Source: Theionarchaea archaeon
GTDB lineage: Archaea > Methanobacteriota_B > Thermococci > Methanofastidiosales > SZ-28-30
DNA length: 64,000 nt
Direction of reading: 5' to 3'
NCBI GenBank assembly: GCA_018992685.1
Contig: JACVGT010000018.1
Location: 192,001-256,000, forward strand
The notes under the pieces: generated by a model
Told to the model about the DNA's origin: nothing
Database searches by the model: none
What the model saw: only the letters and a program-made list of their open reading frames with translations
In this document: in pieces, positions 20,544 through 54,872 of the stretch
How the letters are laid out: each line of letters opens with the position of its first letter
Position numbering within the stretch: the stretch's first letter is position 1
Translations under genes and position numbers: made by a program

Positions 20544-21461
20544 CTACATTTCCTTCAAGAAGTGAGGGGTGGCATCCCGCACTGGGTCGAATTTCTCCCA
20601 GTTTTTGACCACAGTACACACCATGGATACCTTGGAATGCAGTGAAGTCGGCAGCCTCAGAATTCGTTTAATATCTATGGTACATTTCCCATCGACCGAT
20701 TCTGCATTAACCAGTGATAGTTCCTCCAGCAAAGATTCCAGAGCTTTTTTCTTGATTATTCCTTCCAGGCGCATTTTATCTCTGCTGGTCAAAGCTTCAA
20801 TGATGGAATCTCTGTTCTCGAGAAGTGTTGAACCCCCTCTCATGGCAAGGCTCCTCATTTTGGAGAGTGTCACCCCACTCATCCTCCGGAAAGCTGAAGA
20901 ATACCCCTTCACCATGAAAAGATCTGAGGGAACCTTAGACCCTGTCACAAATGTGAAAACACTGCCCCTGTCTCTGATGCTCATGGCTTCCTCATCAGTA
21001 CACCTGACGTGATATCCCCTCCCTGAGTAGACCAGGAACAGCTTGCTCACTCCAAAGCTCTCTTTCAGCGTCTCGATGAGGGTCAGAGCGACATCTCGCG
21101 CATCTTCCAGGCAGATTTCACACACCTCCCCTGCTTTGCATTCGCATCGGCGAGCAGGGAGATCACGAGCATCAATATCAAATACCAGCTCAGCCCTCAG
21201 CCATCCTTCTCTCTGGGAAGGCACGTCGTAATGAGAAACACTGGAGTATATGGCGTACGGTGCAGCCTTTCGGATTCTGGAACTCAACTCGTCAAGAGAG
21301 GAAAAGGCATTGTACCTGTCATTTGGGCCTGTACCATCATTATCAAAGGCGAATTCCAGAAAGCGAAAATAATCAGTAATAAAAGAAGGAAGATCACGAG
21401 GATTCCATTCCCGAGCAAAATACTCTCGTCTATCTTGAAGGGTAGCTTCTCTGAACTCCAT
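20544..21461 (-). CDS. priS: DNA primase small subunit
   Basis: ELVFDID, YSGRGYH, IKRILRLPTSLH, Zn motif. Confidence 0.93.
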   Translation of the reverse strand: MEFREATLQDRREYFAREWNPRDLPSFITDYFRFLEFAFDNDGTGPNDRYNAFSSLDELSSRIRKAAPYAIYSSVSHYDVPSQREGWLRAELVFDIDARDLPARRCECKAGEVCEICLEDARDVALTLIETLKESFGVSKLFLVYSGRGYHVRCTDEEAMSIRDRGSVFTFVTGSKVPSDLFMVKGYSSAFRRMSGVTLSKMRSLAMRGGSTLLENRDSIIEALTSRDKMRLEGIIKKKALESLLEELSLVNAESVDGKCTIDIKRILRLPTSLHSKVSMVCTVVKNWEKFDPVRDATPHFLKEM

Positions 21462-36917: not shown

Positions 36918-37115
36918 CTATCTAAGCGCCAGCTTGACGTCCTCAGCTTTCACTGTCTTGCGTCCAGCGTGCTGAGCGTATTCTACAGCGAGTTTTGAGA
37001 TTTCGATTGCTTCTTCTTCAAGTATGCTAGCGAGTGCCTTAGCGGCGGCCTCAGAGACTCGCTCTGCACCGGCCTTCCGCATAATCCTGTCAATGGGCCT
37101 GTGAGACAATGCCAT
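36918..37115 (-). CDS. Archaeal histone (HMf family)
   Basis: [24 protein letters not shown]; SD GAGGAGGTG. Confidence 0.95.
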
Positions 37116-37194: not shown

Positions 37195-37215
37195 CCTTTT
37201 TAAACTTTTCGGTTG
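37195..37215 (-). promoter_or_regulatory. Consensus BRE/TATA promoter of histone
   Basis: CAACCGAAAAG-TTTAAAAA-GG. Confidence 0.75.
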
Positions 37216-51512: not shown

Positions 51513-51847
51513 GACTACTCCTACCTCCTTCATCCATATAAAACTTTCTACTGCGATAGGAACTTTATCTCGACGAGTGACATATGCAGCTGAACCCAAT
51601 AACATCTGCTTTGCCAGACTCAATACCCGCATTTTTTTTGGCTCTTTCTAAATTATCCACCGTAAATCGAATCCATTTCAATCTGAAACTCGGTGGATAA
51701 TTGCTCACGTCTGGAATAATATCTGAACAATCTAACACCAGAGGTTGTGATGGTAGTAGAAATGATGCGCCACTGATTCTGGGAATGCCAACAATTTGCC
51801 AGGAGTCGGCCAGCAAAGTATTTATAGATGTGCAGACCACCGATGAC

Positions 51848-53269
51848 ATGAAACGTACCTTCATCCTTCTCATCATAATATCAGGATGCATTGGCCAGCA
51901 ACAGCTCTCTTTTCAGTCCTGCAGTCCAGCAGAACAGGCTGTGACAATCGTCGAGGGAGAAGAACTGGAATTTTCCTGCATATTAACAGAGCCACAGAAT
52001 GCATCGTATACGTGGCTCGTGGATGGAGAAATAGTTTCACAACTCAGCTCCTTCACGTTCAGCGAAGAGCCAGGGGCCTATACGGTTGCCTTGGAAGTTA
52101 CCAATGGGAGAAAGACTATTTCCAATGGATGGGAAATCACTGTTGAAGAGTCCCCAGAATCATTGGATTTTCCAGCAATTGAATCAAGAGTGGAAGTTAT
52201 TCGTGGATTGAAGTTCTTGGAACCGGTGAGAAGGGTTATTATAGGTAGAATGGAGATGCGAGAGAACTTCCTTGAGAGTATGCAGGAAGAGAAGGAAGCT
52301 ATAGAAATAGAACAGAAAGTGTATGAAGCCCTCCATGTATGGAATCCTGAAGACAGTCTTTTCCAGGTACACGTAGATGTCCTGACTGAACAGGTTGCAA
52401 GTTACTACGACACAGGAGATCACACATTCTATCAGGTGGTCGATCTAGGCAGCCCTCTTGCATACCGGGAGTTTATTGCCTCCCACGAACTAATCCATGC
52501 CCTTCAGGACCAACATGACTATCTGGACTTTGATACAGAGAACGATGATGAGTACCTAGCATTTCTCTGTCTTGTGGAAGGGGATGCTCTCTTCCACGAA
52601 TATGAATACTTGTACAAGATGCCCTATCAGAAGCAGGGAGCCATATTCAATTATATAAAGAATCTCAATGTGCCGGTTGTCAATTCATTTCTGGAGAATC
52701 TGCTGACAGTGCGGTATGATCTTGGAATCAATTTCATTATCGAAATGAGGATGATTAGTATTGACAGCCTGTACGAGAGACTGCCGTCATCTACAGAGCA
52801 GATCATTCATCCAGATAAATATATGTCAAATGAACAGCCAATTCTCTCAGATGTCCCTGTTATGCCGGGGTGGGAACTTATCGCTGAAAATACGCTGGGA
52901 GAAGCTTTCATCGCTACCGTTTTGAAAGAATACCTTGATGCTGAACAGGCAGATGCTGCTGCTTCCGGCTGGGGCGGAGATTCATATGGCTACTATGAAT
53001 GGCTAGATGAGTACCTTTTCATCATAAATAGTTACTGGGATACTGAAGAGGATGCTTCAGAGTTCTTCATAGCGTACTACGATTTTACTGCTTCATGGAG
53101 CAATGGAATAGTGAAGAAGAGTGGCTCAACCATGTATGAGATACCCACAGGATTCATCTCCTTTGTGTGGAAAGGGAATCAGGTTACTGTAATAGAGGCA
53201 TCCTCCCGGGAAGCTGTTGAACAAGCGCTTTCTGTGCTGGGTGGGAACTCCACGGTAGATTTCTGCTAG
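51848..53269 (+). CDS. Surface lipoprotein with PKD/Ig domain and zincin-like domain
   Basis: Lipobox ISGCIG; HELIHALQDQH..EGDA; GWGGD. Confidence 0.75.
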   Translation: MKRTFILLIIISGCIGQQQLSFQSCSPAEQAVTIVEGEELEFSCILTEPQNASYTWLVDGEIVSQLSSFTFSEEPGAYTVALEVTNGRKTISNGWEITVEESPESLDFPAIESRVEVIRGLKFLEPVRRVIIGRMEMRENFLESMQEEKEAIEIEQKVYEALHVWNPEDSLFQVHVDVLTEQVASYYDTGDHTFYQVVDLGSPLAYREFIASHELIHALQDQHDYLDFDTENDDEYLAFLCLVEGDALFHEYEYLYKMPYQKQGAIFNYIKNLNVPVVNSFLENLLTVRYDLGINFIIEMRMISIDSLYERLPSSTEQIIHPDKYMSNEQPILSDVPVMPGWELIAENTLGEAFIATVLKEYLDAEQADAAASGWGGDSYGYYEWLDEYLFIINSYWDTEEDASEFFIAYYDFTASWSNGIVKKSGSTMYEIPTGFISFVWKGNQVTVIEASSREAVEQALSVLGGNSTVDFC

Positions 53270-53408
53270 AATGGGGACAGTGAATCAGGTATTCAGGATC
53301 AATACTCTTCTCCGTCTCACTCTATCCTATCCCCTGATTGCACTATAGAGAATGTGACAACCTATCTGCCTTTGAGACTCCTTCTCGTGTACCTGCTACC
53401 AACAACTG

Positions 53409-53451
53409 CAACCGAAAGCTTTATAAAGGAAAGTTACTACCAAAGTAGTAA
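53409..53451 (+). promoter_or_regulatory. Strong BRE/TATA promoter with operator palindrome
   Basis: CAACCGAAAGCTTTATAAAGG (18/21 identical to the histone promoter), then TTACTAC-CAAA-GTAGTAA. Confidence 0.75.
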
Positions 53452-53530
53452 GTAATAAACACGACTTCAATCATATTCTTTCCTCCTTGGAGTCAGGCGA
53501 AATGTCTGGCTACCACCTTCTTTTCTTTTT
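53445..53530 (+). ncRNA. Candidate small regulatory RNA (about 85 nt)
   Basis: Promoter, G.U-containing hairpins, UCAUAUUCUUUCCUCC segment, U-rich end; no ATG-started ORF of meaningful length on the + strand. Confidence 0.6.
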
Positions 53531-53663
53531 CTACAGATTACCACGGGACTCGTCAAAGGTATTGAGCGATCACGCCAGTGAGCCAGGCCATTCTGGAGGA
53601 ATTGAGCCACTAGACTGCTTCTGACGAGCAAAAGTATTTATAACAGATAACCACACGTGCACT

Positions 53664-54872
53664 ATGCGAGTTGCTTGGCTCCTCTGTCTGTGCGCCCTGA
53701 TGGCACAATCCCTGCCAGATCCCCTCGTGCTTGACTCCTTTGAAAGCCAAGAAGGATGGGATCAGGTGGCAGCAGAGGGATGCTCAATCAGGCTCACATT
53801 GGACAGGATGAATTCTCGGGAAGGTCAGGCCTCCATTCGGATTGAAGCTCAATTTCCAGAAGGCTGTGAAGAAGGACGATGTTACGCAGGGATGACGCGC
53901 AGAGTATCTGGATTTGAAGGATACCACTTTTTCAGATTTTGGATAAAGCCGGATGCTGCAGCATCCAATGCAGTTTTTGCAATCCATCTAGCCATTTCAG
54001 GAGGCAGGGAAGGGTTTTGCCTTGTCCCTCTGGACCAGACAGGATGGCATCTAGTTACTGTTTCTTTCACGGACTTCGAAAGTGACAAAAAGGAAACCAT
54101 ATCCTTTTCACCCGGTGACATTGAAGCTGTTTCCTTACTTTTGGCATCAAACAAGGCAATGAAAACAGTGATCAATGTCGACGAGCTTCTGGTGCTGCAG
54201 GATTCCAATGGAAATGGAATTCCTGACAAAGATGAGACCAATATGCTTGAGGCAGCAAGAAATTCCGAACAAATGGCAGATCGGTACTATGAAAACGAGG
54301 ACTATGAGAAAGCAAGGAAATACTACGAGGAAACCAGAAGTCTCTATCAGAAGGCAGGGAATGCTGAAAAGGCCCAGGAAATGGACAAAAATGCCAAACA
54401 ATGTGTTGCTTTGCTGGAATATGAACAAGCAGAAGAGTCCTATGCTCAAGAGGATTACGCCAGCGCTATGGAAGCATATGAAAGAGCCAGGAGAGAATTT
54501 GTCCTTCTGGGAGACCTGGATATGGTAGGCATCATTGAAGAGCGACTGGGAGAACTGAGCGCCCTGACAGGAAAACCAACCTCACCCCCTCCAGCCAGAA
54601 CTGGTCTGCCTCCTGCCAGCGAGAGACCTCGAAGTGGTGGAGCAGGGGGACTGTTTCTAGTGCTGCTTCTGGTGGCTGTTGTGGGGGGAGGAGTGTACAT
54701 GTGGAAGTTCAGGAAGCCTGCTCAGCCAGAACCGGAAAAAGAGACGGAACCTGCCCTCCCTTCAGAAGGAAAAGCTGAAGAAATCCGCAAGTTGAAAGCT
54801 CGATTCGTATATGGCGAAATCACCAGAAAGGATTATGAAAAGAAATTGAGAGAATTGGAGGGCGAATCATAG
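53664..54872 (+). CDS. Membrane-anchored protein: CBM-like + TPR + TM + SHOCT
   Basis: Signal peptide, jelly-roll motifs (GWHLVTVSFTDF), DSNGNGIPD, TPR repeats, GEITRKDYEKK. Confidence 0.7.
   Translation: MRVAWLLCLCALMAQSLPDPLVLDSFESQEGWDQVAAEGCSIRLTLDRMNSREGQASIRIEAQFPEGCEEGRCYAGMTRRVSGFEGYHFFRFWIKPDAAASNAVFAIHLAISGGREGFCLVPLDQTGWHLVTVSFTDFESDKKETISFSPGDIEAVSLLLASNKAMKTVINVDELLVLQDSNGNGIPDKDETNMLEAARNSEQMADRYYENEDYEKARKYYEETRSLYQKAGNAEKAQEMDKNAKQCVALLEYEQAEESYAQEDYASAMEAYERARREFVLLGDLDMVGIIEERLGELSALTGKPTSPPPARTGLPPASERPRSGGAGGLFLVLLLVAVVGGGVYMWKFRKPAQPEPEKETEPALPSEGKAEEIRKLKARFVYGEITRKDYEKKLRELEGES

Follow-up and report, generated by a model that had tools for sequence, protein, structure and literature searches.

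A 64,000-nucleotide (nt) stretch of genomic DNA from a Theionarchaea archaeon, referred to here as the window, carries at positions 53409-53530 a compact transcription unit that holds no protein gene and is most likely an independent non-coding gene for an RNA of ~80 nt. The interpretation favoured here, with a probability of roughly 0.7, is that the unit encodes a trans-acting small RNA (sRNA), gated by a repressor, which covers the ribosome-binding site of surface-layer (S-layer) mRNAs and blocks initiation of their translation. Comparative sequence analysis, on which everything presented here rests, shows the layout of the unit, its conservation and strand, its lack of coding potential, and the complementarity with its uniqueness; the transcription, the repressor and the translational effect we infer. 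The organism remains uncultured.

The unit sits within 394 nt that separate two plus-strand open reading frames (ORFs), at 51701-53269 (522 amino acids, aa) and 53664-54872 (402 aa). Its own genome (G000, 3.03 Mb) was compared with three sister genomes (G001, G002 and G003) that complete the four genomes of the same family, f1. The features of the unit are as follows:

53409-53429, plus strand: archaeal promoter, with the B recognition element (BRE) CCGAAA at 53412-53417 and the TATA box TTTATAAA at 53420-53427
53434-53451, no strand assigned: putative operator TTACTA-N6-TAGTAA, with perfect arms TTACTAC/GTAGTAA, covering the predicted transcription start
53447-53530, plus strand: predicted small RNA of ~80-84 nt, its start taken from TATA geometry and its end from the T-tract
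53465-53470, plus strand: putative second pairing block CUUCAA (CUCCAA in most family members), complementary to UUGGAG in S-layer codons 6-8
53471-53487, plus strand: seed UCAUAUUCUUUCCUCCU, antisense to the Shine-Dalgarno (SD) sequence, spacer, AUG and next base of S-layer genes
53488-53515, plus strand: 3' hairpin with core 53491-53498 paired to 53504-53511, present in the minimum free energy (MFE) structure
53518-53530, plus strand: T-tract TTCTTTTCTTTTT, read from the sequence and likely an archaeal termination signal

Architecture and conservation of the unit

A preliminary description of this DNA had placed here a promoter identical at 18 of 21 positions to that of a histone gene and driving no protein gene, and both statements hold. 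The 21-mer CAACCGAAAGCTTTATAAAGG (53409-53429) has one other match in the window with at most three mismatches, at 37195-37215 on the minus strand, where it differs at three positions and lies upstream of a histone-fold gene (36924-37100, minus strand; PF00808). At the histone promoter, TTTAAAAA replaces TTTATAAA after an identical BRE; the genome as a whole has six histone-fold genes. The core CCGAAA..TTTATA occurs 51 times in the genome as compared with 0 occurrences of a reversed control, and is therefore a real promoter consensus. Of the 51 sites, 40 are followed by an ORF of 60 aa or more in the next 160 nt, and the unit described here is among the 11 that have none. Since the BRE stands 5' of the TATA box, transcription would run rightward, and applying the 27-28 nt between TATA and ATG of the leaderless neighbouring gene and its homologs predicts a start at ~53447-53448, inside the right arm of the palindrome. 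The U-tract that had been said to close the unit at about 53530 corresponds to the T-tract at 53518-53530. In archaea, oligo-T is by itself sufficient for termination, and every complete member of the family described below ends with a T-rich run. At the sequence level, the unit has a promoter and a T-tract of its own, shared with no coding gene.

The limits of the unit are also the limits of its conservation. In a related strain represented in two public DNA runs (X6 and X11), the block 53408-53532 is ~94% identical, with seven differences; upstream of 53408 the strain shows no relation to the window, it has 106 different letters where the window has 53533-53663, and in the next gene identity falls to 82%, with 48 of 264 letters differing. 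The island of conservation therefore spans the unit from promoter to terminator, and it has been kept better than the adjacent coding gene. Five of the seven differences were listed, and lie at 53441 in the palindrome spacer, at 53467, at 53477 in the seed (U>C), and at 53499 and 53501 in the hairpin loop. Over 53408-53927, this related strain or species outnumbers the window's own in X6 and X11, with a depth of 22 and 15, respectively, versus ~3-4.

A BLAST search with the region, covering 41 relatives, found it in all three other f1 genomes and returned promoter-only matches elsewhere. The f1 matches share the whole layout, namely BRE/TATA, palindrome, a CUUUCCUCC stretch, hairpin and T-run. 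In metagenomes, a pattern scan returned 67 stretches, 18 of which hold 21 units of full architecture, including tandem copies (two each) on three contigs; the remainder are chance matches without a BRE. The search pattern demanded CTA-N6-TAGTAA and YTTTCCTC, and so these letters are fixed by construction among the metagenome matches. Shared by the units although outside the pattern are the BRE, the TA that precedes CTA in the palindrome, a TAAACACG block downstream of the start, CUCCAA, the hairpin and the T-run, as well as CAUAU before CUUUCC in 13 of the 16 aligned members. The resulting family layout consists of a BRE/TATA promoter, common to all members, the operator TTACTA-N6-TAGTAA, an unpaired CAUAUNCUUUCCUCC seed, a hairpin with compensatory changes and a T-tract. 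Applied to a genome collection, the pattern gave 37 matches, of which three are family members already known from the sister genomes and the other 34 lack a BRE; among viral contigs, none of 12 pattern matches has the family architecture.

A covariance model built from 14 members (R1) finds the unit as its single strong match in its own genome (77.8 bits), in addition to three matches in G002, two marginal matches in G003 (E 0.07-0.18) and a weak minus-strand match on an S-layer gene start on contig C31 (E 0.53). A strong promoter followed within 28-58 nt by TTTCCTC occurs 14 times in the four f1 genomes versus once in the control. Beyond f1, among 121 genomes of the class, this arrangement is present in three of the four genomes of one f2 genus and in 2 of 85 f5 genomes, and in none of the f3 (0/17), f4 (0/7) or f6 (0/2) genomes. 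A loose pattern, CATATTCTTTCCTCC with two mismatches, was set aside, as it occurs in 34 of 34 genomes across the order, only modestly above control, and mostly marks reversed ordinary gene starts. Rfam 15 at gathering scores gave 0 matches in the whole 64-kb window, and in E-value mode over 53200-53750 it gave three chance matches (E of at least 1.9; 13-17 bits versus cut-offs of 40-75). The search among relatives that the preliminary description had proposed has thus yielded a conserved unit with a covarying 3' hairpin in sister genomes and metagenomes, in keeping with its view of a gene-less transcription unit, and the Rfam result agrees with its suggestion of an undescribed RNA family.

The 5' two-thirds and the 3' end of the predicted RNA differ in structure. 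In the MFE fold, the stem 53488-98/53504-15 (-14.3 kcal/mol) leaves the seed unpaired, with a mean unpaired probability of 0.93 versus 0.60 in the remaining RNA; in all 16 family members the seed has the higher value of the two. The RNAalifold consensus of the 16 members contains one helix of eight pairs, four of them with changes on both sides. Pairing in the hairpin reaches 90% of 120 cells; none of 500 column shuffles attains the observed percentage paired or the covariation score, and sliding the partner by 1-3 columns reduces pairing to 5-44%. An alternative stem, 53463-70/53487-94, is possible (-7.3 kcal/mol), and the change at 53467 in the related strain turns one of its U.G pairs into C-G, but it was not recovered as a family consensus. 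Of the earlier proposal that the seed stays single-stranded in two alternative folds, the unpaired seed therefore stands, and the two folds lack conservation in the family.

The G.U pairs, which make up 17 of the 120 hairpin cells and would be A.C mismatches on the other strand, together with the BRE 5' of the TATA box, assign the RNA to the plus strand, as the G.U pairs had already been taken to suggest. An alternative in which the unit is a functionless, decaying inverted fragment of an S-layer 5' end, or a tiny protein gene on either strand, is hardly tenable. It would explain why the minus strand resembles an SD followed by ATG and a short frame (MIEVVFITYYFGSNFPL in the window), and why the reverse complement resembles the first ~40 nt of an S-layer mRNA with an internal gap. 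However, no conserved ORF was found on either strand. A minus-strand codon pattern was looked for and is absent: the frame behind the mirrored SD and ATG ends after 1 to 22 codons in the members examined, and the plus-strand ORF 53487-53624 crosses the variable loop and the terminator. Decay is also at odds with the retention of promoter, operator, seed, hairpin and T-tract across diverged relatives, with an island conserved better than the neighbouring coding gene, with compensatory changes in the hairpin, and with tandem copies on several contigs.

The position of the unit upstream of the 402-aa gene raises a different alternative, that of a cis-acting element of that gene, serving as leader or attenuator or causing transcriptional interference. 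Synteny with the flanking gene is seen in metagenome loci: on L115, L133 and L135/L141, as in the related strain, a homolog of the 402-aa gene stands downstream of the unit in the same orientation. Nevertheless, the gene keeps a promoter of its own, GCAAAAG.TATATAACAG, 27-28 nt before the ATG in four of four syntenic loci (53630-53666 in the window), and is therefore probably leaderless. This promoter lies between the unit and the ORF, where a cis-acting leader or riboswitch would have no separate promoter, and the T-tract would terminate the unit before it. The spacer from unit to gene (100-270 nt) is conserved neither in sequence nor in length, and a leaderless mRNA offers no SD to the seed. 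The units of G001, G002 and G003 stand beside different genes: neither flanking protein gave a tblastn match in 17 sister-genome loci. A cis-acting role is thus very unlikely. The 402-aa protein has no Pfam match, and by eye shows a signal peptide and a C-terminal membrane helix.

The seed and its predicted S-layer target

The preliminary description had recognized in the RNA the exact antisense of an SD and start codon, and this is borne out: UCAUAUUCUUUCCUCC at 53471-53486 is the exact antisense of GGAGGAAAGAAUAUGA, to which a 17-nt target at an S-layer SD and AUG can now be added. The 16-mer GGAGGAAAGAATATGA occurs twice in the 3.03-Mb genome, once as the antisense of the unit and once at C31:20859, where it forms the SD and start of the ORF MKLRKIGAVLAGAALLGATLAGAAAQ. 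This S-layer gene, which starts at C31:20871, is referred to as SL1, and its near-identical twin at the opposite end of C31 as SL2. The complement of the seed is perfect over 17 nt at SL1 (C31:20858-20874) and over 16 nt at SL2, and these are the longest exact antisense matches of the unit to genes genome-wide. The next-longest matches are of 15 nt, with one over the start codon of a 4-codon frame and the other two away from start codons. The C31:20871 ORF matches the Pfam family S_layer_C (PF05124) at 1.8e-14, and a 352-aa copy in G001 does so at 7.5e-15. SL1 and SL2 are identical over their first 80 codons except for codon 2, the twin beginning MELRK. The two paralogs (C31:1-240, minus strand, and 20871-21110, plus strand) point outward and have different promoters and 5' untranslated regions; the S-layer repeat evidently broke the assembly in G000, G001 and G002. 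An operator-like sequence, CTACTA-N7-TAGCAA, abuts the BRE of one C31 S-layer paralog in G000 and G001.

Ranking against 8,870 candidate initiation regions of the genome makes SL1 and SL2 the unique best contiguous match, of 17-18 nt, for 5 of the 16 family members. These five are the members with a U-variant seed, that is, the window unit and four metagenome members. Members whose best match is neither the S-layer start nor a start on contig C24, considered below, reach 11-13 nt only. The spacer AAAGAAT of the S-layer initiation region is found in none of 150 other GGAGG-N7-start regions, and the 15 nt of that region are the same in the S-layer genes of G000, G001 and G002, within untranslated regions that differ. 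The sequence that the seed would mask is one that ribosomes of this lineage would use: the 16S rRNA of the same genus ends in ...GAUCACCUCC, and initiation led by an SD can be regarded as normal here, since 399 of 1,671 long ORFs have an upstream GGAGG. On the contigs of the metagenome units there is no target, except for one unrelated start on L124. In all, the seed of the predicted RNA is accessible, and its complement is the SD and AUG of an mRNA from another locus.

Pairing may extend beyond the seed. RNAduplex joins the seed and the second block in duplexes of -32.5 and -31.8 kcal/mol on the two S-layer starts. The second-block motif is conserved in the family alignment and may contribute to target pairing, or, in the window, may instead pair with 53487-53492. 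The two G002 units extend their pairing into codons 2-4, each in a different way: one pairs with AUUAAG across a bulge, and the other with UGAGAUU, which includes an AGA codon specific to G002.

Several observations weigh against the proposal of an S-layer-silencing RNA. The sole RNA run, X16, gave just one contig, at 53754-53952, which does not reach the unit, although from contigs no absence can be concluded. A scan of 53200-53800 for bacterial-type promoters and terminators found nothing, which for the terminator is explained by the T-tract beginning a few bases 3' of the hairpin rather than abutting the stem. The single-sequence fold is unremarkable (z = -1.33, with 18 of 200 shuffles folding equally well), the fold-energy z-scores are not significant on either strand, and the relatives on L005 and L006 lack the consensus hairpin. 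Covariance model R1 finds no member in G001, a genome of 88% completeness. With respect to the target, SL1 and SL2 are both cut by contig ends after 80 codons, and are not necessarily intact genes or those of the main coat protein. Duplex energy does not discriminate, as the S-layer starts rank second and joint third of the 8,870 regions (mean -13.7, standard deviation 4.6) and one other gene has an energy of -33.0. In addition, both G002 units have two mismatches to the G002 S-layer initiation region. With respect to the repressor, a ribbon-helix-helix (RHH)-like gene that adjoins the unit on one metagenome contig (L124), and lies 1.4 kb from it on another (L140), was dropped as a candidate, its homolog in the unit's own genome being far away on C14 behind a different promoter repeat.

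Two further observations on the target also bear on the breadth of the target set. Where seed position 7 is C, as it also is in the related strain (53477 T>C), family members fit a start at C24:34736 better than the S-layer starts, with 14-17 nt; this start, GGAGGAAAGGAUAUGG, is that of a surface protein of 1,379 aa that contains CarboxypepD_reg repeats. Hence, the targets may not be limited to the S-layer genes, or may vary with the organism. In G003, the A-type cassette heads genes for a beta-helix protein, a BNR-like protein and a TFB, and not the S-layer homologs. Both would be expected if the unit encoded a real small RNA with a broader role, as a regulator of a cassette, GGAGGAAAG(A/G)AUAUG, shared by abundant secreted and surface-protein genes; at high levels, such an RNA might imitate the 16S 3' end and so act on SDs at large. 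The window seed could likewise pair with the C24 start through two G.U pairs, ~10 other starts have duplex energies near -30 kcal/mol, and CCUCC is common to the RNA and the 16S tail. Yet in the unit's own genome only the two S-layer starts reach 16-17 contiguous pairs over the start codon. The seed is conserved beyond CCUCC, through the spacer to CAU, which a general anti-SD would not need, and the second block fits codons 6-8 of the S-layer signal peptide. A broader regulator is thus considered unlikely, and the safest statement is that the family appears to target a specific initiation cassette of abundant surface-protein genes, carried in G000 by two S-layer paralogs. Several surface or secreted proteins (L080 and L083 in G003, C24:34736-38875, and 53664-54872 of the window) have by eye a similar helical tail, …NYIAA.N.ALKA… / …YYEKILQEL…, which may be a shared anchoring or assembly module.

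Operators, a second unit and a possible circuit

The perfect palindrome TTACTAC-N4-GTAGTAA that the preliminary description reported over the predicted transcription start was retrieved by a repeat search at the same coordinates, with 7-nt arms (53434-53440 and 53445-53451) that are 100% complementary and separated by 4 nt. By our estimate a single 7-nt palindrome is within chance expectation, and its weight derives from conservation and recurrence rather than from length alone. In the sister-genome units found by BLAST, the half-sites are retained and the spacer is variable, and the related strain's change at 53441 (C>T) likewise lies in the spacer. A spacing of N6 is enriched, with three perfect sites versus 0-1 at spacings of 3-5 and 7-9, and with 12 sites versus 1-7 when up to one mismatch is allowed; the loose palindrome TACTA-N4-8-TAGTA is not enriched, with 43 matches on both strands versus ~42 computed from base composition. 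Directly after a TATA box, the motif is found at 12 promoters in the four f1 genomes versus two in the control. For instance, the operator is kept at the promoter of an orthologous 1,527-aa Ig/CarboxypepD_reg surface protein in G000, G001 and G002, and in G003 it is also present at the promoter of an S-layer paralog.

A palindrome at the start site that is conserved, and that recurs at the same position in other promoters, makes control by a repressor a reasonable supposition; the repressor proposed earlier thus gains a conserved, recurrent site, and itself stays conjectural. A dimeric DNA-binding protein would sit on TTACTA-N6-TAGTAA. As the same site occupies the same position at the other promoters, those genes should respond in the same direction, and the RNA would be expected to be made together with alternative surface proteins. 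In G003, a TFB paralog with a zinc ribbon and TFIIB repeats (L074 on C21) has a perfect TTACTA-N6-TAGTAA immediately 5' of the BRE, and carries the GAGGAAAGAAUAUGA initiation cassette, the same as that mirrored by the small RNAs.

The mechanism suggested by these features would operate as follows. The consensus-strength BRE/TATA promoter would drive the RNA only once the operator-bound protein leaves the start-site palindrome, giving a transcript unstructured in its 5' two-thirds and ending in the 3' hairpin and U-tract. The exposed seed would form a continuous duplex with both S-layer mRNAs from -13 to +4, a span that takes in the SD, the spacer, the AUG and one further base, and the second block would pair with codons 6-8. 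Such pairing would occupy the landing place of the 30S subunit and block translation initiation, possibly exposing the mRNA to decay. A very strong promoter would suit the titration of a very abundant mRNA, and the operator shared with other surface-protein promoters would lead to co-production of the RNA with those proteins.

A second gene-less unit with a consensus promoter is present at G000:C10:8525-8730 (plus strand), with orthologs on G001:C151 and G003:C38. Here, a different palindrome, ATTGATTATCAAT, follows directly after the TATA box, and the seed, CCAUAUUCUUUCCUCCUAU, lies in a large loop closed by a ~13-bp stem. The C10 unit is antisense over a perfect 19 nt to SL2 and over 17 nt to SL1, and the seeds of the two units are common over 16 nt in the same sense. 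The second RNA would thus converge on the same target from a different operator. The C10-type motif ATTGATTAGCAAT follows the TATA box at five further G000 promoters, one of them with one mismatch, and is found just upstream of the BRE of a third type of S-layer paralog, with related sequences at this place in the G001, G002 and G003 homologs. The ATTGATTAGCAAT sites (C1:287374, C21:5818, C21:24619, C24:24476, C22:36501 and C13:149) look like the regulon of a second factor.

Other promoters that lack an ORF of 60 aa or more in the next 160 nt are C3:107576 (+), C22:20459 (-), C23:9243 (-), C1:287356 (+), C5:70953 (+), C6:11841 (-) and C21:1040 (-). Those on C3, C22 and C23 are followed by a CCUCC stretch and then a T-run, and those on C6 and C21 are paralogs with GGGAGGUGA, SD-like, followed by ATG. 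For the four units checked (C3, C22, C23 and C1:287374), no gene start gave a long antisense match.

Taken together, the two units allow a tentative proposal of a coat-switching circuit, in which two factors, with the operators TTACTA-N6-TAGTAA and ATTGATTAGCAAT, might each gate an S-layer-silencing RNA. One signal could then turn on a new coat while the RNA stops the previous coat's abundant and long-lived mRNA from being translated. These details of the circuit are somewhat doubtful. The seeds may have originated as inverted copies of the 5' end of the gene that they would target.

Relation to known regulators and small RNAs

Targets are known for very few of the trans-acting small RNAs of archaea, and the regulation and exchange of S-layer paralogs in archaea are poorly understood. 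The sequence yields a pair that is open to test, an RNA of ~80 nt and, on named genes, a site of 17-19 nt, together with a defined operator that can be used to find the regulator and a second RNA that converges on the same site. A covariance model is now at hand for a family so far confined to one family of uncultured sediment archaea. In a full-text literature search, no archaeal sRNA was reported to target an S-layer gene. In the available part of a Thermococcus kodakarensis transcriptome paper, the S-layer gene is mentioned only among highly expressed genes.

At the level of transcription, the unit resembles promoters controlled by known archaeal repressors. Repressors of the Thermococcales of the TrmB-family, SurR and Phr types bind palindromes that overlap the start site just downstream of the TATA box, and a palindrome between TATA and +1 is expected to block recruitment of RNA polymerase. 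The likeness lies in this placement and in the recurrence of one site at several promoters to form a regulon. In contrast to these systems, however, TTACTA-N6-TAGTAA cannot be assigned to a known regulator, and one member of the putative regulon is a non-coding RNA.

At the level of translation, the nearest archaeal parallels are the sRNAs of Methanosarcina mazei. There, sRNA41, loop 2 of sRNA154, and sRNA162 mask ribosome-binding sites (PMC5867862; PMC3510493). These RNAs, like the one predicted here, are archaeal and trans-encoded and expose a stretch antisense to the ribosome-binding site, which there represses translation of the target; their condition-dependent expression is a further likeness (PMC5867862). 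On the other hand, no relation in sequence or in Rfam was found, the lineage here is Thermococci / Methanofastidiosia, and the predicted target is an S-layer gene, whereas theirs are metabolic genes. In addition, the pairing predicted here from the sequence would involve 17-19 contiguous nucleotides including the start codon, with a second block in the coding region. The unit therefore most likely represents a new sRNA family that would work like known RNAs masking ribosome-binding sites, with no sequence relation to described families.

In its regulatory logic, the system also recalls the envelope sRNAs of bacteria. MicF, MicA, RybB and OmrA/B silence the mRNAs of abundant outer-membrane proteins, and the likeness consists in a strongly induced sRNA acting at the SD and AUG of abundant surface-protein mRNAs, and in several sRNAs converging on one target class. 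The differences are the domain of life and the type of promoter, a putative start-site operator in place of an alternative sigma factor, and the fact that no Hfq-type chaperone is implied here. The parallel is one of functional analogy, not of membership.

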